A stretch of 64,000 nt of DNA, from NCBI GenBank assembly GCA_033286805.1, contig GCA_033286805.1_4727.1, one strand, 5' to 3'. Of the stretch, positions 9,400-59,296 are shown in pieces (within the stretch, counting starts at the first letter, position 1; every line of letters starts with the position of its first letter). A program made the translations under genes and the position numbers. The DNA is from a phage. The notes beneath the pieces were generated by a model. That model searched no databases and was not told the origin of the DNA. It was given only the letters and a program-made list of their open reading frames with translations.

Positions 9400-11958
9400 T
9401 TACTGTTCGTCGCGTTCCAACAGATACTCGGAAGCGGTAATACCGTTTACCGTACGTACTGCTTTCAGACGAGTATCATCACTCAGAATCACGGTAACAG
9501 ATTGCAGACCTTTTACTTTGGTTTCGAAGGTCTTGAACACCTGATCCAGCATACGAGCAATGCTTGGGTTGGTTGCAGCCGATGCGTGGGTGTAACCGCT
9601 TTGGTTCAGCTTCAGAATCTTGGCGTTGGTCGGTACGCGAACAACAACATGCGGACGCATCGCGAACACGCTATGATTAAACCAGTAAGCATCGTTGCTA
9701 TCTTCGTCGGTAACGATGTCTGGATTAACACGCATATCCTCGACAGCCGCATCCGCCAAACGCCGTTCGATTTCGTCAGCATCCAGAGAGCCATCTTTCT
9801 CCAGTTCTGCACGATACTCACTCATGGCAACCAGATGACGTTCACGATTCGCAGCGGATTTTTCGTGAGCTGCTTTCAGGTAGTCATGCATGTTGTACAG
9901 TTCAGCCATGGAAAGACGAATGTTCCACTGACCTTCGCCATCACGATTGCAGTAGAGGCACTTCAGCATGTTGACCCAGGTATAGTAGCAATTGGAGAAT
10001 TCATCTTCAATGAACTTCTGGTCCATTTTAAGATCGTGAATCAGCCAACCGGACAGTTCTCCGATATCATCAACGAAGCTAGAGATGGTGGTTTCAGAGA
10101 AGTTCTTCGGTACGATACGTTTGATCAGCTTGTTAACGTCTTTGGTCATGCTATCGTTCAGGAAATGCCAGATACGCAGAGGAATGACATCTCGATACTG
10201 TTGCATGATCTGACGATAAGCTTTGATATCGTCGCTACGACCTTTATCAATAGACAACGCATCCAGGAATTCATGGATTGCATCCAGCTCTTTGTCGGTA
10301 TAGGTTCCCAGATAGGAATTGACGGTGGCCAGGAATGCTAATGCGTCGTTTTGGTTGACGTCGGTGTTGGTCTGCTGAATGATCGCTACTGAAGCTTTGG
10401 TTTCAGCATCCTCAACGCTTGACGCTGCGATCGCATCGGTGACGGTAAACAGTTTCATTTCGCGCTGCTCACCGACAACGATTGGCTCACGCTGAACCGG
10501 CTTGTTAAGGCTAACACGAACAACTTCTGCTTGCGCGATACGATCCAGTTTTGCCATTTCCTGCTCTGCCATACGACGAGCGGTTGGATCTGATTCAAGT
10601 TCGATGTATTCCACTTCTTCCTCCGTGAGGGATGTAATGTCAACAATGGTTTCATGAAGAATTCCGTTTTCGTCGATACGTGCTCGACGAGCGAAGTGCC
10701 TGAAGTCATACAACGTCGGCCAACGACTATTAGGTGCAAAGTCTTTGGCTTTCAGACGCATCTGCATAAATTCTTCATGTTGAACAACACGACCGTAACG
10801 CTTAGCATCTTCGGTCGCATCAATTGGATTAACGGTCTTTGTTGCCGTAGCGGAACGAGCCGTACGAACCGGTTCCGGTTTCACCTGCGCAGGTTCAGGT
10901 TGAACGGGTTTCTGCTGCCCAGCCTTAACATGCCATTCTGGCTCTTCGTACTGTTCAGCAAATTGCTCGGCCGCTGCAAAGATATCGTTGATACCACCAA
11001 TATCTCCTTCAGGATTTGTCGAATATACTCGTGGTTGCGGTGCCTCGTAACGCGGCGCTGCGGTAGCAGGCGCGGCATCAACGATAGGATCATCATCACC
11101 AACATCATACAAACGGTTGAACGCACAATCCTTCGAATCAATGTACGATGGTGTTTGTGGTTGGACAACCGTAGGTCGAGGTTGTGTGCCGTATCCTGGT
11201 GTTGTTGGAGCCATACCACGCATAACTGCAGGACTAGGTTGGTATTGCGGTTGTGGGTAGGTTCCACCATACATGGCGTACGCAGGCTGTTGTGGTTGAC
11301 CATACCCGTTGCTAACCATCGCACTTGCTTGCGGCCCACGATAAGTCATCCCCATCTGCATCACCTGCTGCTTCAAACCACGTGACTTCTGAGCGATTTG
11401 CGCTAGGCTTCCGCTTTTATTCAGCTGCGTGTACTTGTTCGCGGCTTCCGGGTTAATGCGTGATAATTCAATCGCGCGATAATATTCCGGGTACTGATTA
11501 GGTTCAAAGAGCCACGTTACAAGATGATACAGCGCAACTGTGCTCACAGCAGCAGAGACGATCTGGTCGTCGGACGCGTTCTGTGGCATCGGGTTGATGT
11601 AAGAGAACACGTTCCAACAACAGTCTTCAACAAGCGATTCCATCATCATATCGTTATTGGTATAACGTGCGACGAACTCGGTTTGTATTTTGTCTTGCTG
11701 AGCGAAGTCTTTCAGGACATTAAAGATGGCTTGACGGATTTTGACGATCGTCGCTTCTTGGGTGATGAAGTTATAGTTCTGCTGATATGAGGGTTGTTGG
11801 TATTGTGGTGGTTGATAGGCGTTATTCGGATATGCACCGTACGGCGATTGCTGATACTGCTGCTGACGAACCTGTTCAGCCGCATAATTAATCGTGCTCG
11901 CATAAGGGTTTTCGCTATAGCCCATTTGCTGATACATGTTGTTACTGCCATTATACAT
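9400..11958 (-). CDS. hypothetical protein (852 aa) with Q/Y/P-rich low-complexity N-terminus and a second Q/P/Y-rich region
   Basis: ORF track; AAGGA RBS; N-terminal about 65 aa and aa 200 to 272 are Q/Y/P/N-rich. Confidence 0.7.
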   Translation of the reverse strand: MYNGSNNMYQQMGYSENPYASTINYAAEQVRQQQYQQSPYGAYPNNAYQPPQYQQPSYQQNYNFITQEATIVKIRQAIFNVLKDFAQQDKIQTEFVARYTNNDMMMESLVEDCCWNVFSYINPMPQNASDDQIVSAAVSTVALYHLVTWLFEPNQYPEYYRAIELSRINPEAANKYTQLNKSGSLAQIAQKSRGLKQQVMQMGMTYRGPQASAMVSNGYGQPQQPAYAMYGGTYPQPQYQPSPAVMRGMAPTTPGYGTQPRPTVVQPQTPSYIDSKDCAFNRLYDVGDDDPIVDAAPATAAPRYEAPQPRVYSTNPEGDIGGINDIFAAAEQFAEQYEEPEWHVKAGQQKPVQPEPAQVKPEPVRTARSATATKTVNPIDATEDAKRYGRVVQHEEFMQMRLKAKDFAPNSRWPTLYDFRHFARRARIDENGILHETIVDITSLTEEEVEYIELESDPTARRMAEQEMAKLDRIAQAEVVRVSLNKPVQREPIVVGEQREMKLFTVTDAIAASSVEDAETKASVAIIQQTNTDVNQNDALAFLATVNSYLGTYTDKELDAIHEFLDALSIDKGRSDDIKAYRQIMQQYRDVIPLRIWHFLNDSMTKDVNKLIKRIVPKNFSETTISSFVDDIGELSGWLIHDLKMDQKFIEDEFSNCYYTWVNMLKCLYCNRDGEGQWNIRLSMAELYNMHDYLKAAHEKSAANRERHLVAMSEYRAELEKDGSLDADEIERRLADAAVEDMRVNPDIVTDEDSNDAYWFNHSVFAMRPHVVVRVPTNAKILKLNQSGYTHASAATNPSIARMLDQVFKTFETKVKGLQSVTVILSDDTRLKAVRTVNGITASEYLLERDEQ

Positions 11959-11992: not shown

Positions 11993-13789
11993 TCAATCGA
12001 TTATGTCACGATCGTTAATTTCTACAATTTCTTCATCGAATCGACCGACGTCTTTCTTCAAGCCTGCATTGGTTGCTGCAACGTCATTTGCAATTTGTGG
12101 GGTAATGATTAACCGACCACGTTCGTCGATAGGTGCGTACATACTGAACTTTTGACGTCCGGTTGGTTCGGAGTGTGGAAGATTCAGATAGCTTGCACAG
12201 AACGGGATGGAACCACTAACCAAACGACTCTCGTCAGCCAATGCAGCACCGCCTGCGTTTTGGCTCTGGAGAACAACATGCGTGCTCACTTTGAACAGCA
12301 TGCAATCACCCGGTGACTGAATCGATGTTGCCACTTTCTCACGTTTATCACGATTGCTCTGGATATTGAGAATCGCTTCCGTTGCAACTTGATTTCGCAA
12401 CGCCTTCTGCACATCGCGATTGGTCATCTCTTTACGGTTGTTCTGTCGTTTGCCACGTTCTGTGGTTTTAAGATGGAACCCCAGTTTAAAGATGCTTTTA
12501 CGCACATCCTCCATGACATATTCCAACACCATCAATTCCTTACCGAACATCGTCGTGGTGTCAACACGACTCATTTCGATAGTAACATTGTCAATCAGAT
12601 ACGCCATAAATTCGTAGAAGTCGTCGCAAGGAATATTTTCCTGTTTGAACTTCTTCTGTTGAATTTCGTCAACGTAAAGATCGAGACTGTCGATGTGGTG
12701 GTTTACATCACGCAACAAACGCGCATCCGCATTGTTGTTATTAAAGATAATCAAACCGAGTAATGTACGCCAATGGTCTGGCGCATTTGCGAACTCCTCA
12801 ACCGGATAGTCTTCCGGAAAACGATCGTAATAACGGTCGATGAGATATAGGAACGCACCGACAAGGCCAAGAACAATACGTTCCGTGCCTCCACGTCTTA
12901 CAGCAATTTGAATATCAGGATGTTTGTAACGTACAGCGCTAGCGCTACGGCTTTTACCGCTTTTGCTGATACTAAAGCCTTTAGGAATAACCCCCATGGT
13001 GCGATAGATTACCCATTGGTCACGCGGAAAATCACGTTCAGCAAGGTTCCGTCCGGTTACGGCTTCGACACCTGCAAAACGTCGGAAACACTCACCCACC
13101 CCGTACTTCGCAAAGAGATAGTGACCCAGTGTGGTTACGCTGGTGTGGTTGATGTTGTCACCGTTCACTTTACTTTGTTTGGTAAGATGATAGATTTGCG
13201 ACCAGGGTAATGACAGGTAATGACGATAATCGATACCGGTCGGTGTATCATTGCTCAGGAACTGATACGGTGTACGTTTAACCGTGATTTTATCACGCGG
13301 AAGCATGATGAACGCCATGTCTTTCGTGTAACTGATTACGGGGTCAGCGAGTACCGCACTGAGAATGAAGTTCGCACCACGTAGACGCATTTTACCACCC
13401 TGACCTACCGCGGGTAATAGGAGAGGATGTCGGATAATGCAGTAGTCCTTTCCGGGTTCACGACGGTCGCCTGATTCCATCGCGCCGTACCAGCGGAATT
13501 CCAGCATCACCATAAACACATCGGAAGGCGCAAGGTCGAAGGTCAGCTTACCGCTATCCTTCCCTTTGGTTTTCTTTCCTCCGCTTAAGTAGTGGAACTG
13601 TTCGCGGGCCATACAGCGACGCAGGCCATGATACACCAGATCCTTAGGTAAACTATCTTTGCTGTTCCGCCAAAGACGATCAACATAGGACTCAACATCT
13701 TGCATCTTATCGACGACGATGTTGCGTGCTATCTTCTCGTTCATCTTCGGTGCAAGCTCAGCGACAGCTTTGCAGAATCTAGGATCCAT
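11993..13789 (-). CDS. hypothetical protein (598 aa)
   Basis: ORF track start 13792 is GTG; adjacent ATG at 13789 has AAAGGAG RBS at 6 nt spacing. Confidence 0.65.
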   Translation of the reverse strand: MDPRFCKAVAELAPKMNEKIARNIVVDKMQDVESYVDRLWRNSKDSLPKDLVYHGLRRCMAREQFHYLSGGKKTKGKDSGKLTFDLAPSDVFMVMLEFRWYGAMESGDRREPGKDYCIIRHPLLLPAVGQGGKMRLRGANFILSAVLADPVISYTKDMAFIMLPRDKITVKRTPYQFLSNDTPTGIDYRHYLSLPWSQIYHLTKQSKVNGDNINHTSVTTLGHYLFAKYGVGECFRRFAGVEAVTGRNLAERDFPRDQWVIYRTMGVIPKGFSISKSGKSRSASAVRYKHPDIQIAVRRGGTERIVLGLVGAFLYLIDRYYDRFPEDYPVEEFANAPDHWRTLLGLIIFNNNNADARLLRDVNHHIDSLDLYVDEIQQKKFKQENIPCDDFYEFMAYLIDNVTIEMSRVDTTTMFGKELMVLEYVMEDVRKSIFKLGFHLKTTERGKRQNNRKEMTNRDVQKALRNQVATEAILNIQSNRDKREKVATSIQSPGDCMLFKVSTHVVLQSQNAGGAALADESRLVSGSIPFCASYLNLPHSEPTGRQKFSMYAPIDERGRLIITPQIANDVAATNAGLKKDVGRFDEEIVEINDRDIID

Positions 13790-13828
13790 CACACACTCCT
13801 TTCAGAAAGTTGCTTAAGCAGATTAAAG

Positions 13829-15265
13829 TTACTTTTTCGATGACGCTTTCTCAAGAATCTTGAAAAAGGTCATACCTATACCGACAACAGCCGCGGTTAT
13901 GCTTGCAGCGGCTTTCCAAACATCGACGTTACGTTGACGTCGCGCTTCTTCCGCTTCACGTTGTCTTTTTGCCTCTTCATCACGTCGACGTATCTCAGCA
14001 GCAAACTCGTCGTGCTTACGTTTGGATTCTTCGTCTCGACGACGAAGTTCAGCGACGAATTCTTCATGTTTGCGTTTAGCCTCGTCATCACGACGTTTTA
14101 AATCAGCTTGATAATCTTCGTGTATTTGTTTACGTAGATCATCTTGACGCTTCATTTCGGCTTGGTGTTGTTCCATCCTACGTTTTTGTTCGTCTTTAAG
14201 CTGATCGAGTTCGGCTTTATGTTGTTCATCACGCAGCTTTGCGTCGGCGCGATGCGCCTCATGCATCTGTGCGATAACTGCCTTGTGTTCATCCGCCATA
14301 CGTCGCATTTCAGCCATCACCCCTTTAAGGGTTTCTTCTGATGCCTTACGTTCGTAGCTACGTTGGTCGAAATCATTTTTGTAGGCTTCTTTTTGGATGG
14401 GGTCGCGCCAATGTAATGCCGATTCACGTGTCGGAAAAACATTGTACTTCCACATCTCTTTTTCCAAATCTTCGACCGGTACGAAGATGGAGTCATTATT
14501 ACCGAAGGTAACCAACATACCTGGCGCACCTGCTCCATTCGTTGGTTTTATTTCGAACGCTTTCCCCAGCACGTTAACCCATAAGCTATACGGATTATGA
14601 AAGTCGGGTGGCGTCCAATGGATAGTGAGTTGCGTTCCGAGAATCCGGAAACCCTCTGTTTTTCCCGTCAAGCTCCGCGCGCACGTTGCGATGTAGGGGT
14701 GATCAATCCCTTTCGTAACGTGGTCTGCGCTTTTGTATTCTCCTTTAACTTTTACGATTGCCACGTTGATTTGCGCGACATAAGCGGGTTGATTAAAGTT
14801 CAGCGTGTTGAGGTCAATTTGACATATTTCATCCAGCGTATCGTACCAGTCTTGCTGGTCTAATAGACGCGGCATTTTCTCTGTGTTAACAATACGACGG
14901 ATATGCGGTTTCCTTATCGCGTAACCTGTGCCGTTTTTAACACGGAGTATATCCCGACGTCTACCCGCGTAGACGAAGTTTCTGAATGCACCATTCGCAT
15001 TAGATACGTCATGGCTGTCAACTATTACAGGACTACGAAATTTTGAACGTCGTACGATCCTGAATGTATTGCCGTCCTCAACCCTACCAGGAATGTACTG
15101 GAACATATTGTCGGAGGTGATAACCAACACGGTATGGCCAGATTCATTAATACATGCCCATCCTAATTCCAGGTCATATAACGGTTCGGCATAACCGTCA
15201 ATGCGATATGCGTGCGTACCATCCCACGGTTCGAACGCGGTATCACATATTGGCATGGAGGGCAT
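13829..15265 (-). CDS. hypothetical tail-anchored coiled-coil protein (478 aa)
   Basis: ORF track start is TTG; ATG at 15265 has GGAGG RBS; globular N-terminal region, K/R/E/D-rich heptad-like region with 18-aa repeats, then hydrophobic segment AAASITAAVVGIGMTFFKIL near the C-terminus. Confidence 0.6.
   Translation of the reverse strand: MPSMPICDTAFEPWDGTHAYRIDGYAEPLYDLELGWACINESGHTVLVITSDNMFQYIPGRVEDGNTFRIVRRSKFRSPVIVDSHDVSNANGAFRNFVYAGRRRDILRVKNGTGYAIRKPHIRRIVNTEKMPRLLDQQDWYDTLDEICQIDLNTLNFNQPAYVAQINVAIVKVKGEYKSADHVTKGIDHPYIATCARSLTGKTEGFRILGTQLTIHWTPPDFHNPYSLWVNVLGKAFEIKPTNGAGAPGMLVTFGNNDSIFVPVEDLEKEMWKYNVFPTRESALHWRDPIQKEAYKNDFDQRSYERKASEETLKGVMAEMRRMADEHKAVIAQMHEAHRADAKLRDEQHKAELDQLKDEQKRRMEQHQAEMKRQDDLRKQIHEDYQADLKRRDDEAKRKHEEFVAELRRRDEESKRKHDEFAAEIRRRDEEAKRQREAEEARRQRNVDVWKAAASITAAVVGIGMTFFKILEKASSKK
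13925..14090. repeat. about 2.5 tandem copies of a 54-bp unit inside the coiled-coil gene
   Basis: repeated protein unit RRRDEE(A/S)KRKH(E/D)EF(V/A)AE(L/I); the DNA units are near-identical. Confidence 0.55.
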
Positions 15266-15415
15266 CGTCAACCTCCATCTGATTGAAAACTATCACGCAT
15301 AATACATTTCCCTTTTCTTGTTCTTATCAAGCCGACAGCCGACGGTTTCAGCATCGTTCCTAGCGCGAGAACGACCTTACGTGTTGTCTATGCCTTATTC
15401 ATCGAAGGCGTCTGT

Positions 15416-15473
15416 CACCTAGGTAATGTAAGCGTCAAATTTTTTCTATTCGCAACGATAAACGGCATAGAAA
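15416..15473 (-). promoter_or_regulatory. conserved roughly 60-nt intergenic element, copy 1 (CACCTAGGTAATGTA ... GCATAGAAACC), upstream of gene 13829..15265
   Basis: shares the CACCTAGGTAATGTA box and the CATAGAA box with copies at 21897 and 59195; sits immediately 3' (on the minus strand) of a GC-rich hairpin. Confidence 0.45.
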
Positions 15474-15502
15474 CCTCCCCCAACCCTTACGGGCTGAGGG
15501 AG
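15474..15502 (-). terminator. GC-rich hairpin downstream of the candidate capsid gene (CCTCCC...GGGAGG)
   Basis: inverted repeat with inner CCC-TTAC-GGG; lies between the capsid stop (15603) and the next promoter-like element. Confidence 0.5.
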
Positions 15503-15602
15503 GCTGACTTATGTATCACGGTGCCGGATGAATGTCCGGTGCAATGAAACCATCCGCAACGTTGTCGTCAAGAATATCATCCAACGAAGCAGCTACGGTA
15601 GT

Positions 15603-17825
15603 TCAGTTAGTCTGAACCGGCAGCTTGATGTTTTCAGTGTAGACCTTACGCAGGTTCACAACGTTAATCAGACCCAGCAGCGGGCAGTTGTTAACGAAGC
15701 GGCAGCGCGGCTGAACCATGGTTTCTTTAGAAACCTGACCGTTACGGGTAACCTGAGCAACAGATACCAGTTCCGGTACATACAGGAACATACCGAAGGT
15801 CAGCGGATCCGGAGAACCCTGGATACCACGAGACAGGGTCACGAAGATCTTATCGCGCAGCATGACGTTCGGGTTATCTACAACCACGAAGTTGAAGCTT
15901 ACACCAACGGTACGGAAATCGCCATCGGTCTGCAGGAACTGCGGGATGTAGTTGTCAGTTGCTACTACGCAACGCGGTTTCTCATCAGCGTTGGAAGACA
16001 GCAGCTGCAGAGCTGGCTGATAACCAGACTCAGAGTACATGCGGTATGCCATTTCACGAATCACGTTCATGATCGCAGCAGACACTTCAGCACGACGTTC
16101 TGCGGTGGTGGTACCCTGAACAGATTTCTCCAGGTCCAGGTTGATTTCTTCGAACCACGGACGGATCAGGTAACGACCGAAACCTTCGATCTGGATGTCA
16201 CCGAACTGACGGAAGCGAGAGGTCGCAACCGCTTTCAGTGCGTCTTTGTAGCTGAACAGTTTCTCAACCATCAGGTTGTCGAAACGTGCGTTAGCAGCTT
16301 GGATCAGAACGTCCAGGTCAGCAGCGTTTTCTTCCCAATCCAGCGGACGAGGAATGGAGAACGGAGCCAGCAGGCCGATTGCGTAACGTTCTTGCTTCAT
16401 GTTGAAGTCAAGGTGCTTACCGCGCTCACGACGGTTGCTGTTGTTACGGCGGATACGCAGTTCGTAACCAACCAGTTTGAAGCTCAGGTCTTCAGCCAGT
16501 TGTTTGAACTCTTCGCTCTTACGCGGTTGTTCGATGTTGTCCTGATCAACCAGGCGATACAGTTCAGCGTTAGCGCCGTTAACACGCAGACCCGCTTTCT
16601 CTACGTTGGAAGAACCGTAAACTTCGATCGCCAGCTGAGCAGCAGATTTCGCATCGATGATGTCCTGCAGCGCTTCAGCTTTCGCACCTTTAACGTCTTT
16701 GGTGTTCTCATCAACGAAGATGGAGTGAGTGTCGAACGCCAGGGTCATTTTGCGGAAGTCGCCTTCCAGGGATTTCTGGAAACCGTTGGTGATCAGACCA
16801 GATACGTCGAACGGTACGTAAGAGGTTTTGCTGTGCTTGGTAGATTTGATTTCCACCAGGATTTTGGTCAGCGTGATCTGGGCGTCCAGCGCGTCGGTGT
16901 TGTCGCTGTAACCGTTAGCCAGGATGCTATCGTCTTCAGCGATACCGATCATGTCGATCAGTTTATCAACAGCCAGGTAAGACGTTTTATAAGTTACGCC
17001 TTTAATTTCGATGTCACGCGGAGCAACGATAGTTTTGTCAACGAAGTACTGCGCGTTAGCATCGTCAGCACGATAGATCGGATGCAGATCGGTCACGTCG
17101 TTGGACAGAACGTCGTTGTACATGAACGCATCCAGCAGCGGACGACGTACCCAATCAGCCGGAGTACCGTCAGCGTTACGACGCAGGTGGTTGAACACCA
17201 GCGGACGACGGAAAGATACATCATAACCGATCTGGTTCGGAGCCAGAACGATGGTGTTGTACAGTTCGTTACCCATGCGGCTCAGACGAGAAGCCTTCAC
17301 GTTGAACACAACGGAGTACGGCATCATGTCACGCAGTTCTTTCTGGTCGTAGGACAGCTGAACCAGTTCTTCAGATTCGCAACCGCAGGAATCAGCAGCC
17401 ATCATGACGAAGTTAGAGCTATCGACTTCACGGCCAGACGGAGTGGTGCTGATGTTCATGGAACGTGCTTGTTTAGCATATTCCACCGGGTTGCCATGAG
17501 CCAGCATGATCAGTGCTGCTGCACGAGCCTGCTGTGCGTTCATGGTGAACAGCTGTTCTTCAATACGCTGCTTCTCTTCCGGAGTGGTGGTTTCGAAGCC
17601 CAGCATGGACAGAACCGGTTCTTCGGCTTTACGGATGTCGCTGCTGAAGCTCTTAACATCCATTTCGTTAACCAGTTTGTCCATGGATTTGAAATCAACC
17701 TTAGAAGCAGATTCCATAGACAGGAAGGTGTTCTCCAGACCTTTGTCTGCTGGTTTGCTACCATTAGCGGTCAGGAACTGGCGAGTGGCCGCGACCTGTT
17801 GGCTAAGAAGGGTTTTATCATTCAT
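15603..17825 (-). CDS. candidate major capsid protein (740 aa); alternative is tail sheath
   Basis: strongest codon bias in the window (CTG, CGT, GGT, GAA, AAA) indicating very high expression; the 740-aa size is in the range I recall for phiKZ-like major capsid proteins; AAAGGA RBS; hairpin immediately downstream; N-terminal region contains S/A/G-x-E sites compatible with prohead-protease processing. Confidence 0.55.
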   Translation of the reverse strand: MNDKTLLSQQVAATRQFLTANGSKPADKGLENTFLSMESASKVDFKSMDKLVNEMDVKSFSSDIRKAEEPVLSMLGFETTTPEEKQRIEEQLFTMNAQQARAAALIMLAHGNPVEYAKQARSMNISTTPSGREVDSSNFVMMAADSCGCESEELVQLSYDQKELRDMMPYSVVFNVKASRLSRMGNELYNTIVLAPNQIGYDVSFRRPLVFNHLRRNADGTPADWVRRPLLDAFMYNDVLSNDVTDLHPIYRADDANAQYFVDKTIVAPRDIEIKGVTYKTSYLAVDKLIDMIGIAEDDSILANGYSDNTDALDAQITLTKILVEIKSTKHSKTSYVPFDVSGLITNGFQKSLEGDFRKMTLAFDTHSIFVDENTKDVKGAKAEALQDIIDAKSAAQLAIEVYGSSNVEKAGLRVNGANAELYRLVDQDNIEQPRKSEEFKQLAEDLSFKLVGYELRIRRNNSNRRERGKHLDFNMKQERYAIGLLAPFSIPRPLDWEENAADLDVLIQAANARFDNLMVEKLFSYKDALKAVATSRFRQFGDIQIEGFGRYLIRPWFEEINLDLEKSVQGTTTAERRAEVSAAIMNVIREMAYRMYSESGYQPALQLLSSNADEKPRCVVATDNYIPQFLQTDGDFRTVGVSFNFVVVDNPNVMLRDKIFVTLSRGIQGSPDPLTFGMFLYVPELVSVAQVTRNGQVSKETMVQPRCRFVNNCPLLGLINVVNLRKVYTENIKLPVQTN

Positions 17826-21875: not shown

Positions 21876-21955
21876 GATAACAGTAACCGCTGTTATCACC
21901 TAGGTAATGTAGTCGCGAAATAAACTGGAGTAATGCGAAATAAGACAGCATAGAA
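21876..21955 (-). promoter_or_regulatory. conserved roughly 60-nt intergenic element, copy 2, with abutting 8-bp palindrome GATAACAG-N6-CTGTTATC
   Basis: near-identical to the copy at 59174..59253 (CACCTAGGTAATGTAGTCGCGAAATAAACTG...CGAAATAAGACAGCATAGAACC). Confidence 0.5.
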
Positions 21956-44871: not shown

Positions 44872-47800
44872 TTATCTTACGTTACTGCTATTCTGCTGTT
44901 CGCTGAACCAACCGTACACCTTGAGATCGGTACCATATCTCAGTGCGATATACGCATTCAGCGCAGCACAGAACAAAGACGCGAATGCCCATATCAGCGA
45001 AGGATCAACATCTTCCGTTACCACTGGGAGAGTATTATCCGGTTCCCATGATGGAGAACTGTCCATGAACGTCGTGTACCATTCCCGCCGTTGTTCTTCA
45101 GTGGTAAAGTCGCTATGGGGTTCCAATGCTTCTTTTGCCAGACGTCGATATTCGAACATATGCGTTGCTAAAGCCGATGAGTTACCAGATTCGCCTTCAT
45201 AGTTCGGATCCACCGCATAACAGAGTTCTGTGGAATCTAACAAAGCGACCGCCTGTGTGATGCTGTCGGCAGTGCCTGCACCATAGAGCTCGATAGACCG
45301 CGAGAGCTTCTCACAGAACGCATTTAACGCGGCAGGATTGGACACCTGAAGGTCAAGGCCTAATGTCCACGGATAGTTACTGAATACACCCGTAAACCGC
45401 GGCATAACACCCAACAGATGTTGTCCGATTACAGCACGGTTATAAACAGCCCGGTTATAGACTTGAAACGCAGCCTCCAGGGCTTGGTTATAATGACGAC
45501 GAAGTTCATCACGCGTGTTGCGGAACCTGTTTGCCGCGAGACTTGTGGCTGCAACGCTACAAACATCGTAATTGGTGGACGAGAGCACAACCTCGTTAAG
45601 ATCGAACGATTCCTGTTTCAATGTTCCGCTAACAGCTGCCGCTTCGCTGTTCGCTTTATCGACAACTGTACTCAAAGCGTTGATGTAACGTTTAGCTCGG
45701 ACCTCCAACCATTGTGCGATGCCGAGAATATCCACCGCAGCTTTAGCAAGATCGCGTGCATTCACGATTTCGTTCTTCAACGCCCCTAAACCTTTATTTT
45801 CAGGCGATGAGGCTTGTTGACGAATCATGCTGTTCAACATGGTAAGCAGATTATCCAACTCATGTCCGCTGACCTTGTTACGCGCATCGGTAATCGGCCC
45901 TTGCAGGAATTTACGGCAACCATCGTTGTATCGAATCAGTTTATCCACATCGATAGATTCGTTCGTAGATTCCTTGAACTGATCCTTCAATTCTTCACGG
46001 TAGTCGTGGATTTCACTTGCGAGATTATCGATAGTGATACCGTCATGTCCAAGAAGAACTTTATTGAAGTTACCTTTCTCGAATGCCAGAGCAAGACCTT
46101 CACGAATCTTAGCGAGTTTATCCTGATCGAGTTCACGACCGTTCGATAGCTCTTTCACTTCCGAGCTGATTAATGCCGAAACGTTACCCAGATTGTCGGT
46201 AACTCCTTTGAACGCTCCCGACCAAATCGTTCCTACTTCAGCATATTTCGCAATGGTCTGAATACCGACGGTGTGTAGCGACGCTAAACGTTTCTTCGTG
46301 CCTTCGGTAAGCAGAGCGTCTTTAGCTCGCGTAAGCTGACTGTTATTAGCTTCCGCCTGCTGAATCGCTGCTTTCGCACTTCCATTACGCCAGCTCTTAA
46401 CCAGCCAATCAACCAAACGTTTTAGGATATTGACGGTGTATTCCATTGTCCGCCGTAACGTTTCCCACGCGCTTTCTGCGGTATAGATGCCGTACCCTTC
46501 CATCTTCAACGCTTTCAAGCTTGTTTGACGTGCCAACCATTCTACCGTTGCAGAGCAAACGTTTACTAATGCTTCCAGGTAGTTGTAATAGACGTCTGTT
46601 GCAGTTGTTTCGTTGAACTTTGAATGCAGATAGAACTGATCGTAAAGTTCGTCGTCATCGCCGAAGGCATCATAGTTCCACAGTTCTGTATCACAACCTG
46701 TACCGCAGAAGACGTCAGCTGTCGTAAACTCTTTAAGCGCTTTAGCTGCGTCATTTGTCAGGAATTTACCTGTTTCAACTACATCGTCAACATTAAGCTT
46801 GGGGAGTTCGTCGGTGACTGGCTCTTCCAACATCAGCATATTGAAGAATGTGCTGTACTTGTATCCGAGCCATTTTGGATAACTGCTTTCAGGGATCGTA
46901 GACAGCGGCTTGATTTTCTTGGCTTCAGCCAATGTGTCTTTTGCGACCTGATATTGGTTTTCCCCAGCCTTGACGCGACGTAATGCTTTTTCTTCCAACT
47001 GCTTAAGCTTGGCATGGCGTGCTTGTGCTGGAGCTTCAACAAGTTTTTGTACCGACCGCATTGCAGAAATCGCTTCTTTTAATACGATCATCGGCATACG
47101 AACTTTACCGTCGTCGAAACTAAGAGCGCGAGCGACACGTTTACTTACGACCGGCTTATCATGGATATTTCGTTCCACCCACGATTTGTTTGCGTAAGTT
47201 TGAGCGATCTGCTGTTGGATATTTTCAAGGTATTTCCAGCTGCTGGATGCTTTATTATCCAAAAGCGGATTCGGTCCCTTCTTATCGAAAAGTTTCAGAA
47301 TCGGACCAAAGAAACCTTCCTGTACGAGTTCGATACGCGTGTATCCGTCAGCCGCTTCGATTTCTTCTTGGGTTTTGTCCCAGAGCTGTTCACTACGGAC
47401 AGCAGTAGCTGTTTCAGATACCGACATAACAAGCTCGGCAACAACTTCAGCGCAGGTCAGTACGGTACGCACGCATTGCAGTAGCATACGCTGGTAAACG
47501 ATACGGGCGTTTTGTAAACGTGCGATAACCGCTAAATAACCGATATTGTCAAGACGTTCGTCGGCTTGAGCAGAGTCAACACGTTCTATCAGTTGTTTAA
47601 CCAGCGCGGCTGTTTCCGGATAATCGTTCACGACGTCACGCATAATTCGTGATGCGAAAACCGCGGTACCTAAAACAGTGAGGAGTGTTTTACTATCCCA
47701 TTCTTTTGGTGTCGCTACCGATTCAGTAGGGATGAGATTTCCCGCCTGGTCGAAGTACGGCATAAGGACATTGATATCAGTAGACGGAACAGCAGTAATT

Positions 47801-48477
47801 GCGTTATACTCTTCATCCGCACCATCGTTGCCAGACGGCTGTAATGCAAGTGCTTGTTCAAGGATTTTGCGGTCAGCGGCATAAAGCGCCGACAGAGCTT
47901 GCGTTGCCGCAACCAAATCAACGATCGGCGACCAGAGCTGTGCGAGCTTACCTTCGTATTTCCGTACAGCGATAGCAAGGTCTTCTTTTACGTCTGGATG
48001 ATTGATTAAACCACCCAATGTTTCATGGATGGCAGAAAAACGTTCGGAATGTGCTTGTGTCAACGCGGTAAAATCGTCAACGTACGACGCATTTTCTTCA
48101 AGGCGTGTAAGTTCCTGCTCCAGGAGATCTTTTACTTGCGTAGCAGATGCGTTTCTCAACTGTTCACCGATAATCGCGATGGCTTTATCGACAACGCGAC
48201 AAGCTTCATTGAAGCCGGTTGTTGAAGGTAACTCGGTCCATAATGCCAGCGGCTTACCTTCCATTGCGTCAGGAAGGGAATATGACAACATTGCTAGTTG
48301 TTGACGTGATACCTGTTTGTCACGATGTAATGTTTCTTTCAACGCCAGAAGCTCATCAAGACCCACACTGCTAGGGATCGTGGGATGTGATACAGCGTTG
48401 ATGTTTTCTGCTAATGACTCAAGAACCAATAAACCATTTTCAGCGGAAGATAACCCTGCTTTAAGGTATTTGTTCAT
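44872..48477 (-). CDS. very large hypothetical protein (1201 aa), alanine/leucine-rich and helical; virion internal protein-like
   Basis: ORF track; GGAG RBS; composition similar to the 932-aa and 1128-aa proteins. Confidence 0.65.
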   Translation of the reverse strand: MNKYLKAGLSSAENGLLVLESLAENINAVSHPTIPSSVGLDELLALKETLHRDKQVSRQQLAMLSYSLPDAMEGKPLALWTELPSTTGFNEACRVVDKAIAIIGEQLRNASATQVKDLLEQELTRLEENASYVDDFTALTQAHSERFSAIHETLGGLINHPDVKEDLAIAVRKYEGKLAQLWSPIVDLVAATQALSALYAADRKILEQALALQPSGNDGADEEYNAITAVPSTDINVLMPYFDQAGNLIPTESVATPKEWDSKTLLTVLGTAVFASRIMRDVVNDYPETAALVKQLIERVDSAQADERLDNIGYLAVIARLQNARIVYQRMLLQCVRTVLTCAEVVAELVMSVSETATAVRSEQLWDKTQEEIEAADGYTRIELVQEGFFGPILKLFDKKGPNPLLDNKASSSWKYLENIQQQIAQTYANKSWVERNIHDKPVVSKRVARALSFDDGKVRMPMIVLKEAISAMRSVQKLVEAPAQARHAKLKQLEEKALRRVKAGENQYQVAKDTLAEAKKIKPLSTIPESSYPKWLGYKYSTFFNMLMLEEPVTDELPKLNVDDVVETGKFLTNDAAKALKEFTTADVFCGTGCDTELWNYDAFGDDDELYDQFYLHSKFNETTATDVYYNYLEALVNVCSATVEWLARQTSLKALKMEGYGIYTAESAWETLRRTMEYTVNILKRLVDWLVKSWRNGSAKAAIQQAEANNSQLTRAKDALLTEGTKKRLASLHTVGIQTIAKYAEVGTIWSGAFKGVTDNLGNVSALISSEVKELSNGRELDQDKLAKIREGLALAFEKGNFNKVLLGHDGITIDNLASEIHDYREELKDQFKESTNESIDVDKLIRYNDGCRKFLQGPITDARNKVSGHELDNLLTMLNSMIRQQASSPENKGLGALKNEIVNARDLAKAAVDILGIAQWLEVRAKRYINALSTVVDKANSEAAAVSGTLKQESFDLNEVVLSSTNYDVCSVAATSLAANRFRNTRDELRRHYNQALEAAFQVYNRAVYNRAVIGQHLLGVMPRFTGVFSNYPWTLGLDLQVSNPAALNAFCEKLSRSIELYGAGTADSITQAVALLDSTELCYAVDPNYEGESGNSSALATHMFEYRRLAKEALEPHSDFTTEEQRREWYTTFMDSSPSWEPDNTLPVVTEDVDPSLIWAFASLFCAALNAYIALRYGTDLKVYGWFSEQQNSSNVR

Positions 48478-51826: not shown

Positions 51827-53137
51827 TTAGGCGATAATGGAATCAAGAGTCGCTGCGGTTTTGAACAGATCGCTGTTCATTGTAGAAGAAAGGACTTGCT
51901 GAATTTCTTCCTGTTTAACCGCTTTACGAACCCCAGGACGAAGGATAAGCGTAACCATCTGTGAAAAGGTACGATTATTGTTCATCGCACTCAGCGTTTC
52001 ATCGATTGTTTTGATGGCATCCAGCGTCATGGAACGAACATCGCTTGGGATATCACGATCTTTCAAGCGTATAATTAAATCTTGTTTGATTTTACGGAAT
52101 CGTTCCATGTCGTTATCGTAAATGCTGTATGTCGGATCTAACCAAACAGAAAGCGCGGTTACAGCGACAACAACCAACACGCCGATAGCACCAACAGAAG
52201 CTAAACCTATCGCCATCATAGAAGCTATAGTAGCATCCATGATGAAGGAGAGCCAGAACATCGTTTTGGACTTCACGGAGTCTTTGCTATAAAGCCGATA
52301 CATTTTAGCAAGCCCGCTAACGAGATACTCCCCACCACCATGACGCGTAGCGAACTGATCGGCCATGAATTCGGAAGCAACGTCGGTATATCGTCCAGCG
52401 TTGTTTACATTTCGTAACTGCATTGCTCTGTTAGACACGTAAACCGTGTACCAGACACTACCATCGTCTGAATCACTGATTTTGTCTACGTCGACGTTGG
52501 TATCCAACGTTTTGTTTAACGCTTTCGCCAGTTCGATACGTTTTACCTTATCGGTTGTCCCCAACAGTTCACGCTGTACGGTCATGATTGAGGCTTCGAC
52601 ACGAACCGTTTCCGACAATGTTTCAAGGAAGGTAAATGCGTGCCCGATTTCATGCAGCATTATGGCTGCTTTTTCTTCCGGAAGAAAGGGTTCTGTCGCT
52701 GTTAGCAATTCATACGTGATGGCAGAACGAATCTTCAATTCTTCAAAGATACCGTAAACACGACCTTTTTCTAAATCGACGTAACCGACAGGCGTATCTT
52801 TAATCTTCTTAAGGAGCGTAACGCCATCAGCACCGCGCATCCATAACCGATGATAGTCTGCCAGAATTGTGTTGTTTGTCGAAATATCCGGTGGGTACAC
52901 GTAGGCATTCATTTGGCCCATTTTCACGTCGACCGAGAATTCGATGTTCAACCCCGTATAGCGTTTAACCATCTCGGTTAAACGACCGTCCTTGAAAACG
53001 TTTAAAACCTCTTTTTTATCCAGTCCCTGTTTGCTTCTGAAGAACTCGGTCATTTCCTTGAACAAGGAACCATCTTGAAACTTGATGGCCTCCATCGTTA
53101 ATTCGTCATGACCGTACACGCGTTGTAGTAATGACAT
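51827..53137 (-). CDS. putative membrane-anchored M48-like (HtpX/Ste24-type) zinc metalloprotease (436 aa)
   Basis: HEIGH at aa 162-166; EFMADQFA at aa 256-263 resembling the M48 third-ligand motif; hydrophobic segment of about 35 aa at aa 295-333. Confidence 0.5.
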   Translation of the reverse strand: MSLLQRVYGHDELTMEAIKFQDGSLFKEMTEFFRSKQGLDKKEVLNVFKDGRLTEMVKRYTGLNIEFSVDVKMGQMNAYVYPPDISTNNTILADYHRLWMRGADGVTLLKKIKDTPVGYVDLEKGRVYGIFEELKIRSAITYELLTATEPFLPEEKAAIMLHEIGHAFTFLETLSETVRVEASIMTVQRELLGTTDKVKRIELAKALNKTLDTNVDVDKISDSDDGSVWYTVYVSNRAMQLRNVNNAGRYTDVASEFMADQFATRHGGGEYLVSGLAKMYRLYSKDSVKSKTMFWLSFIMDATIASMMAIGLASVGAIGVLVVVAVTALSVWLDPTYSIYDNDMERFRKIKQDLIIRLKDRDIPSDVRSMTLDAIKTIDETLSAMNNNRTFSQMVTLILRPGVRKAVKQEEIQQVLSSTMNSDLFKTAATLDSIIA

Positions 53138-59173: not shown

Positions 59174-59253
59174 GATAAGATATTTTGCTCTTATCACTAA
59201 GGTAATGTAGTCGCGAAATAAACTGCGTTAAAACGAAATAAAACAGCATAGAA
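59174..59253 (-). promoter_or_regulatory. conserved roughly 60-nt intergenic element, copy 3, with abutting 7-bp palindrome GATAAGA-N8-TCTTATC
   Basis: near-identical to copy 2 (CACTAAGGTAATGTAGTCGCGAAATAAACTG...CGAAATAAAACAGCATAGAAACC); 68 nt upstream of the ATG at 59126. Confidence 0.5.
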
Positions 59254-59296
59254 ACCTCCTCCCCCATCCTTCAAGAGGACGGTGGGAAGAGGGAGA
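59254..59296 (-). terminator. GC-rich variant hairpin after gene 59299..59700
   Basis: CCTCCTCCCCC...GGGAAGAGGGAGAG imperfect inverted repeat with inner TCCT-TCAA-GAGGA. Confidence 0.4.

Follow-up and report, generated by a model that had tools for sequence, protein, structure and literature searches.

Predicted head, charged helical stalk and apolar C-terminal helix of gp40, a Goslar-type member of the chimallivirus core gene family cg35

The stretch of phage DNA analysed here (64,000 nucleotides of contig GCA_033286805.1_4727.1, assembly GCA_033286805.1; hereafter the window) carries on its reverse strand a 478-codon gene that reads from an ATG at 15265-15263 to a TAA stop at 13831-13829. 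Over its whole length the gene is 98.7% identical in nucleotides to Goslar_00040 (gp40, “hypothetical protein”) of Escherichia phage vB_EcoM_Goslar, and on this identity the window is assigned to a Goslar-like jumbo (giant) phage of E. coli from the nucleus-forming family Chimalliviridae. The gene, called gp40 below, lies between the gene for the major capsid protein and that for a subunit of the non-virion RNA polymerase (nvRNAP). Its product is almost certainly the ortholog of chimallivirus core gene cg35, the family of PhiKZ gp122, and very probably consists of an N-terminal head, a long charged stalk and a C-terminal anchor (Table 1).

Table 1. Features of gp40 and its surroundings, with positions in the window.
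Feature	Position	Strand	Residues of gp40	Description and basis
Coding sequence of gp40	13829..15265	-	1-478	Complete, 478 amino acids plus stop; list of open reading frames (ORFs) and sequence
Shine-Dalgarno sequence GGAGG	15272..15276	-		Six bases 5' of the gp40 ATG; read directly
N-terminal head	14402..15265	-	1-288	Mostly β-strands, AlphaFold2 pLDDT 30-80; hhalign match to orthologs
Junction motif NVFPTRESAL	14414..14443	-	275-284	Kept in orthologs as G-[FLY]-[FY]-x-[ST]-x-x-E-A; 11-ortholog alignment
Stalk, predicted continuous charged α-helix	13913..14401	-	289-451	About 24-25 nm if fully helical; AlphaFold2
Five clear 18-residue (54-nucleotide) units	13946..14215	-	351-440	Consensus AE[LMI][KR]RRD[DE]E.KRKH[DE]EF; register layout and pairwise identities
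Repeat array detectable in the DNA	13967..14095	-		Tandem Repeats Finder: period 54, 2.4 copies, 69% matches, score 125
Last repeat and anchor-adjacent segment AEIRRRDEEAKRQREAEEARRQRNVDVWK	13913..13999	-	423-451	Best conserved part of the protein
C-terminal hydrophobic helix AAASITAAVVGIGMTFF	13862..13912	-	452-468	Candidate membrane anchor; hydropathy maximum of the protein
Basic amphipathic tail KILEKASSKK	13832..13861	-	469-478	Net charge +3; similar K-Φ-Φ-x-K ... KK endings in orthologs
Promoter-like conserved element	15410..15475	-		Upstream of gp40, about 65 nucleotides; contains TACATTACC at 15422-15430
Strong hairpin, 15 bp	15472..15505	-		About 100 nucleotides past the stop of the major capsid gene; folding energy -32 kcal/mol (z = -5.4), equalled by 0 of 200 shuffles
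Upstream neighbour, major capsid protein (Goslar gp41)	15603..17825	-		Pfam PF25620 PhiKZ_MCP, E 5e-218
Downstream neighbour (gp39), nvRNAP subunit, ortholog of PhiKZ gp123	11993..13792	-		phrog_2943 “polymerase,” E 7e-120; tblastn to PHIKZ123

The sequence itself is not new, since cg35 is listed in an existing catalogue of core genes, with no function assigned. Table S3 of Prichard et al. (2023; PMC10299810) equates Goslar gp040 with PhiKZ gp122 and RAY gp001* as cg35, “hypothetical,” and marks cg35 with the asterisk given to genes that are unique to chimallin-encoding phages and absent from chimallin-less relatives sharing the capsid type (PMC10299810). Counterparts occupy the same genomic slot in PhiKZ (gp122), PhiPA3 (gene 138, YP_009217217.1, annotated as similar to PhiKZ gp122), 201phi2-1 (gp202), RAY (gp001) and Eowyn (gp144), and further ones are found in PCH45, Aphrodite1, FLC4-4C, RTH11 and FBKp24. 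The order of capsid gene, cg35 gene and gene for a gp123-like polymerase subunit, all on the same strand, is shared by the window with PhiKZ, PhiPA3, 201phi2-1 and Eowyn, and recurs in Aphrodite1, FLC4-4C, RTH11, FBKp24 and two metagenomic relatives (the P0015 and P0016 contigs). The exceptions are PCH45, in which four small genes lie between the cg35 counterpart and a large upstream gene, and RAY, in which the counterpart is the first gene of the record. When the heads alone were compared by hhalign, gp40 matched the group of PCH45, FLC4-4C, RAY and Eowyn with a probability of 96.3% (E 1.8e-9); the match to the group of PhiKZ, PhiPA3 and 201phi2-1 was weaker (54%, P 1.3e-4), yet full-length and collinear. 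An alignment of 11 orthologs reveals collinear head motifs, namely N-x-[ST] near residue 40, HP[YF], G..Y and G-Φ-Φ-x-T-x-x-E-A. A Foldseek search of the AlphaFold2 model against BFVD returned 19 matches with E values from 1e-8 to 1.5e-5, the next match following at E 0.03, and all 19 are uncharacterised proteins of 311-523 residues from phiKZ-like jumbo phages, including B3FJ64 of 201phi2-1 (345 residues, which is the length of gp202). These matches have low TM-scores of 0.15-0.23, and confidence in the model used as query is modest.

Pairwise sequence searches, by comparison, fail to link the family outside the Goslar clade, and the orthologs are barely alignable in pairs. Sequence searches of Pfam (E <= 0.1), NCBIfam and the PDB gave no match for gp40, a tblastn search with the head against 50,697 phage records (E <= 10) found Goslar alone, and in PHROGs there was a marginal match of the stalk and anchor only, to phrog_1893 (unknown function; E 0.008). 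An exhaustive HMMER search of 1.8 billion representatives added just two further clusters, P0015 (413 residues) and P0016 (406 residues), which are 31% identical to gp40 and share the layout of head, charged helix and hydrophobic C-terminus. As a profile search with the 11 orthologous heads recovered the Goslar and Aphrodite1 clades only, no deep alignment could be built. The other members of cg35 resemble gp40 in their genomic slot, their collinear head motifs and their profile and predicted-structure similarity, as well as in having a helical linker followed by a C-terminal apolar helix. They differ in the linker, which is 39-194 residues long across the family, with 147-194 residues in the Goslar clade and 39-101 in the other members, and which in the Goslar clade consists of 18-residue ER/K repeats. 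The C-terminal run differs as well, being uniformly uncharged over 17 residues in Goslar, whereas the PhiKZ-type members have an amphipathic, charged helix. The literature yielded no characterisation of Goslar gp40 (gp040), and neither a function nor a description of a stalk and anchor was found for cg35.

For the structure of gp40, a first AlphaFold2 run with 10 near-identical sequences produced no model of the head, while a second run with 11 sequences gave a modest model (pLDDT 60.8) with a single helix spanning residues 289-474, for which the pLDDT is 66-89 over residues 320-450. When the head was compared with the PDB by Foldseek, the best E value was 0.66, and the matches were weak SH3/Tudor-like fragments that were not trusted. 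A first-pass annotation of this DNA had described a globular N-terminal region of about 290 residues followed by a charged stalk and a single C-terminal hydrophobic helix, and this architecture is indeed present, with the head comprising residues 1-288 and the predicted helix following directly.

The first-pass annotation had also stressed the extreme K/R/E/D content of the stalk, which amounts to 54% over residues 300-450. Within residues 306-450 autocorrelation gives 35% identity at a lag of 18 residues and 27% at a lag of 36, compared with 4-17% at other lags, among which lags 7, 11 and 29 form minor peaks, so that the repeat unit can be divided into 7+11 residues. The five clear units are preceded by two degenerate ones. 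Since the units are only 52-65% identical to each other in nucleotides, the duplications are old, reflecting neither recent slippage nor an assembly artefact. The 54-bp tandem repeats reported for the DNA are thus real, and 2.4 copies are detectable at this level, but they lie at 13967-14095 rather than at ~13925..14090, and at the protein level five clear units can be distinguished.

Other parts of the earlier description, which called the region heptad-like and the protein a coiled coil, do not fit the stalk. The period is 18 residues (7+11), corresponding to about 3.6 residues per turn, and the strongest hydrophobicity period is 3.65 instead of 3.5 and is itself weak, being reached by 29 of 500 shuffles. 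The residues L, I, V, M, F, W and Y make up 17% of the stalk, with about two per 18 residues in units 387-440. Furthermore, pairs of opposite charge at positions i/i+3 and i/i+4 number 84, as against 42.9 ± 5.0 in shuffled sequences, and this excess of potential salt bridges is found in all four length variants of the Goslar clade (z ~8), the clade in which it is strongest across the family. Such a pattern is the signature of a predicted ER/K single α-helix (SAH), a type of domain that occurs, for example, in myosin VI/X and caldesmon. Like ER/K SAH domains, the gp40 stalk is more than 50% charged, contains few hydrophobic residues and an excess of opposite-charge pairs at i/i+3 and i/i+4, and is predicted to form one long helix; unlike them, it is organised in 18-residue (7+11) repeats, and its N-terminal half (residues 300-386) is more amphipathic than the rest. 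This half could engage in pairing, while the stalk as a whole is presumed to be monomeric. A match was also obtained to a protein in which a membrane helix continues into a very long single helix serving as a rigid stalk, but it extends over the helix only, the anchor of that protein sits at the other end, and at 6% identity the two are not homologous.

The number of repeats had been suggested to vary between isolates, and it does. In the protein database close relatives of 460, 478, 489 and 507 residues are present, originating from Salmonella, E. coli and raw-read assemblies; one 478-residue cluster has 208 member sequences, the 507-residue form 58, and the 460-residue form is found on 29 contigs, one of them of 244 kb. 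The protein alignment of the stalk contains an 18-residue deletion, an 18-residue insertion whose start coincides precisely with a unit boundary (it reads AEIKRR...) and a further insertion of 11 residues, and alignment of the DNA of the four length classes places in-frame insertions or deletions of exactly 54, 54 and 33 nucleotides at reference positions 954-1163. An assembly artefact, which would have been suspected had otherwise identical homologs lacked the repeats, can be ruled out, because each length class is represented in many independent assemblies; the repeats are real, and it is entire units by which they evolve. Compared with the window DNA, the 507-residue variant is about 97% identical in the part encoding the head and 92-98% at the 3' end, with 61-81% across the stalk. 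The gene is mosaic, and this suggests recombination or diversifying change limited to the stalk cassette.

At the C-terminal end of the protein, the last 56 residues are near-invariant (55-56 of 56 identical) in the four Goslar-clade homologs compared. Here, the anchor-adjacent segment AEIRRRDEEAKRQREAEEARRQRNVDVWK is identical at 28-29 of 29 positions in the same homologs and still at 21 of 29 (72%) in P0015, in which the head is only ~30% identical, and a different, equally conserved motif, YEERS..RKDSS..WK..P, stands at the same place in PCH45 and FLC4-4C. The hydrophobic helix AAASITAAVVGIGMTFF that follows comprises 17 uncharged residues flanked by W450/K451 and K469 (20 from W450 to K469) and has a low hydrophobic moment (0.29). 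Its Kyte-Doolittle mean over 19 residues is 1.76, and only residues 447-472 pass the hydropathy threshold. The N-terminus of gp40 is acidic and polar, and a hydropathy analysis of the 478 residues revealed neither a signal peptide nor a second hydrophobic segment. Since AAASITAAVVGIGMTFF ends a solvent-exposed helix of ~165 residues, the possibility that it belongs to a buried core, raised in the earlier description as an objection to a membrane anchor, is excluded. In P0015 and P0016 the corresponding run has kept its apolarity relative to Goslar but not its sequence, a pattern that resembles the behaviour of lipid-facing helices. Uncharged runs of 13-17 residues are present in Goslar, P0015, P0016, FLC4-4C, RTH11, PCH45 and Eowyn. 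In all 13 orthologs the last 36 residues are enriched in apolar residues; the net charge of the last 12 is positive in 12 orthologs and zero in PhiKZ. The feature common to the family is an apolar or amphipathic C-terminal helix, usually with a central glycine, which fits membrane association as well as protein docking. For the Goslar clade tail anchoring, as had been proposed, is plausible given the single C-terminal hydrophobic segment and the lack of a signal peptide, and membrane insertion may occur; a true span throughout the family does not fit the charged helices of the PhiKZ type.

Bacterial tail-anchored proteins of the inner membrane are exemplified by ElaB, YqjD and YgaM (DUF883) of E. 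coli. They share with gp40 a cytoplasmic N-terminal part and, at the very C-terminus, one hydrophobic segment with a few basic residues at its end; gp40, however, shows no sequence relationship to them (no Pfam match at E <= 0.1), and has a much larger head, a long stalk and marginal hydrophobicity. C-terminal amphipathic membrane-targeting sequences are carried by MinD and FtsA, and the short basic amphipathic extreme C-terminus of gp40 (KILEKASSKK; SILEKLFKKR in PhiPA3) is comparable to these but is preceded by a longer apolar helix. Elsewhere in the window, the most hydrophobic segment of all, MAIGLASVGAIGVLVVVAV (Kyte-Doolittle 2.57), is located inside an apolar stretch of ~40 residues in a 436-residue ORF (51827-53137, reverse strand), the product of which is likely to be a genuine phage membrane protein. 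A 1201-residue ORF (44872-48477, reverse strand) contains the hydrophobic segment LIWAFASLFCAALNAYIAL (Kyte-Doolittle 1.93), which ends 22 residues from the C-terminus, making its product a possible second C-terminally anchored protein.

The sequences around gp40 bear on its expression. The hairpin downstream of the capsid gene is likely a terminator that separates this gene from gp40; it was seen by reading and folding the sequence, having been missed by a scan for consensus terminators and promoters. The promoter-like element that follows reads TTTCTATGC.GT.TTAT.TCG ... TACATTACCTAGGTGA. Its layout, with TTTCTATGC.GT.TTAT.TCG, a spacing of ~12 nucleotides and then TTTATTTCGCGAC TACATTACC TAGGTGATAA, recurs upstream of three genes, all on the reverse strand (at ~15410-15475, ~21890-21955 and ~59190-59255); within the window a 29-mer of the element is found twice with at most three mismatches (0 expected), and the exact 9-mer three times. 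The element contains TCTATG (PhiKZ late promoters have TATG) and an ATTAC core resembling PhiKZ early promoters, and it may represent a Goslar promoter class. Between the gp40 stop codon and the polymerase subunit gene there are 36 nucleotides, in which no hairpin was seen by eye in the part read, the gap not having been folded or scanned over its full width. It appears from this arrangement that gp40, gp39 and perhaps gp38 constitute a transcription unit of their own. In PhiKZ the genes for nvRNAP subunits belong to the early class (PMC10612078), and by analogy gp40 is probably expressed early as well, together with the polymerase subunit gene. The gp38 gene, which follows the polymerase subunit gene (9400-11958, reverse strand; 852 residues), is the positional counterpart of PhiKZ gp124 and has no family match. 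In PhiKZ, 201phi2-1 and PhiPA3 an extra small gene (gp121, gp201 and gene 137, respectively) overlaps the start of the gp122 ortholog; where the Pseudomonas phages carry this gene, Goslar has an intergenic region of 337 nucleotides. No paralog of gp40 was found elsewhere within the 64-kb window.

Several published data sets include cg35 relatives. In the available part of the virion mass-spectrometry table of a 2026 preprint on the Goslar structure, the gp40 accession is absent and that of the capsid protein occurs 32 times, such that gp40 was not detected as a virion protein. In the first supplementary table of a transposon-sequencing study of PhiKZ, orf122 has 0 insertions and the neighbouring orf125 has 8616 reads at 16 sites; for orf122 a second table gives 10 reads at 8 sites (PMC12676376). 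The same study classified 19 of 20 chimallivirus-unique genes, with orf122 in that class, as essential or strongly fitness-conferring in PhiKZ, and its authors caution about polar effects (PMC12676376). Antisense knock-down of PhiKZ122 reduced plaques and ChmA weakly but disturbed phage transcription strongly when assayed at 30 min, and knock-down of PhiKZ124 likewise perturbed phage transcription strongly (PMC12571901), so the PhiKZ genes 122, 123 and 124 may form one functional module. In PhiPA3, pulldowns with ChmA-GFP and with ChmB-GFP yielded the ortholog YP_009217217, as did ChmA proximity labelling, and the role of this protein was called unknown (PMC10643120).

Taken together, gp40 may tentatively be regarded as a rigid spacer or tether with a lipid anchor. 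The C-terminal helix would fix the protein to a hydrophobic surface, most likely a lipid bilayer, for which the host inner membrane and the early-infection membrane vesicle enclosing the injected genome are candidates. From there the stalk would hold the head at a set distance, predicted to be ~22-29 nm for Goslar-clade members, as against 6-15 nm for those of other clades, and adjustable by whole repeats in steps of 2.7 nm, and the β-rich cytoplasmic head would bind a partner tied to the phage nucleus or the capsid.

A number of observations weigh against such a lipid-anchored spacer. In PhiKZ, PhiPA3, 201phi2-1, RAY, Aphrodite1 and FBKp24 the C-terminal helix is charged or amphipathic, with uncharged runs of 7-10 residues, and a true membrane span is therefore not a property of the whole family. 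Even in gp40 the uncharged run is just 17 residues long, its Kyte-Doolittle score is reached by 9 of the 51 ORFs in the window and thus is not specific on its own, a rough sum on the Hessa biological scale is positive (+1.4 to +2.8 kcal/mol), and the +3 tail would need to cross the membrane. Moreover, the head has no recognised fold and hence gives no pointer to a partner. As PhiKZ gene 123 starts 10 nucleotides downstream of gene 122, polarity on gene 123 could account for the phenotypes seen with transposons and antisense oligomers, and the support from PhiPA3 is thin: the ChmA-GFP table contains a single peptide, and the labelling value is not significant (PMC10643120).

Alternatively, the C-terminal helix could insert into a protein, in the form of a groove in the chimallin (ChmA) lattice, ChmB or a bundle of its own copies, so that the stalk projects the head from the nuclear shell. 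We regard this docking as somewhat unlikely, though it accounts for several observations. The amphipathic and charged helix of the PhiKZ-type members suits a protein interface better than a bilayer, and helix-helix packing is suggested by the central Gly/small-residue motif, which was recognised by eye in this helix for a majority of the 13 orthologs. That the anchor-adjacent segment is the best conserved part implies a specific contact, and the recovery of the PhiPA3 ortholog with ChmA and ChmB points in the same direction, albeit by a single peptide. The chimallin lattice is itself held together by terminal tails that dock into neighbouring subunits, to which such an insertion would be comparable. 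By contrast, docking does not readily explain how the uncharged runs of Goslar, P0015, P0016, FLC4-4C, RTH11, PCH45 and Eowyn diverge in sequence yet stay apolar, and the lipid anchor is modestly favoured over it.

In another model, which is unlikely, gp40 forms a parallel dimeric or trimeric coiled coil that is tail-anchored by a true transmembrane span. In its favour, the predicted helix is long and uninterrupted, lag peaks at 7, 11 and 18 arise from the 7+11 repeat, residues 300-386 contain three to four hydrophobic residues per 18 with a 3-4-4-7 spacing, and small-xxx-small motifs in the anchor could mediate bundling. The stalk, however, lacks a 3.5-residue periodicity, has the low hydrophobic content described above, particularly in units 387-440, and exhibits a large excess of intrahelical salt-bridge pairs, whereas the span would again require translocation of the basic tail.

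It was further considered that gp40 could act as a procapsid tether, the head binding the portal or the major capsid protein and keeping capsids at the inner membrane as they form, much as prohead initiation in T4 is membrane-associated. The gene lies directly downstream of the major capsid gene in most relatives examined, capsids of Pseudomonas chimalliviruses are reported to assemble on the membrane (PMC10299810), and the ChmB pulldown that contained the PhiPA3 ortholog is rich in capsid proteins (PMC10643120). This function is nevertheless quite unlikely, as the putative terminator and the separate promoter-like element split gp40 from the capsid gene and join it to the early-class polymerase gene, the family is absent from chimallin-less relatives that share the capsid type, and the effect of the PhiKZ knock-down on transcription, seen at 30 min, either precedes capsid assembly or does not depend on it.

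An improbable view is that gp40 serves as an accessory factor of the nvRNAP or of its delivery and functions in middle or late transcription, its architecture being incidental. The gene adjoins the gp123-type gene invariably and is probably co-transcribed with it, and antisense oligomers against both PhiKZ122 and PhiKZ124 have strong transcription effects. The effect of the former may be polar on gene 123, however, and a hydrophobic anchor is hard to square with a site of action inside the nucleus, which is where the polymerase is active; nor is the cg35 protein known to have been reported in purified nvRNAP. Finally, a spanin- or holin-like role in lysis is very improbable and ruled out by topology and gene context: gp40 superficially resembles phage i-spanins of the Rz type in having one membrane helix and a long helical region, but these have an N-terminal anchor, are periplasmic, are encoded in a lysis cassette and are paired with a lipoprotein, whereas the hydrophobic helix of gp40 is C-terminal, its head and long helix are predicted to be cytoplasmic without a signal or N-terminal span, its neighbours are capsid and polymerase subunit genes with no adjacent lipoprotein gene, and the PhiKZ holin, regulator and endolysin genes are orf142-144, away from orf122.

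With respect to the literature found, the explicit head, stalk and anchor anatomy of the cg35 family is new, as are the expansion of the stalk by 18-residue ER/K repeats in the Goslar clade, the change of copy number among isolates with a mosaic, fast-evolving stalk, and the division of cg35 proteins between those with span-like and those with amphipathic tails. Returning to the lipid-anchored spacer, cg35 might, in its boldest and quite doubtful form, be the missing link between membrane and phage nucleus, where an early tail-anchored ruler in the vesicle or inner membrane would use its head to recruit or position chimallin, ChmB or portal-bearing procapsids, with the number of repeats setting the distance. 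If so, the rapidly diversifying stalk would tune the spacing, and the natural length variants, which differ by whole 18-residue units, are ready reagents for studying a spacer function. Every nucleus-forming phage has a set of about twenty genes that is confined to this group; nearly all of these genes lack a function, cg35 included. The anatomy described here turns an anonymous, probably essential and family-specific gene into a testable hypothesis, according to which its product may tether something, at a set spacing, either to a membrane or to the nuclear shell.

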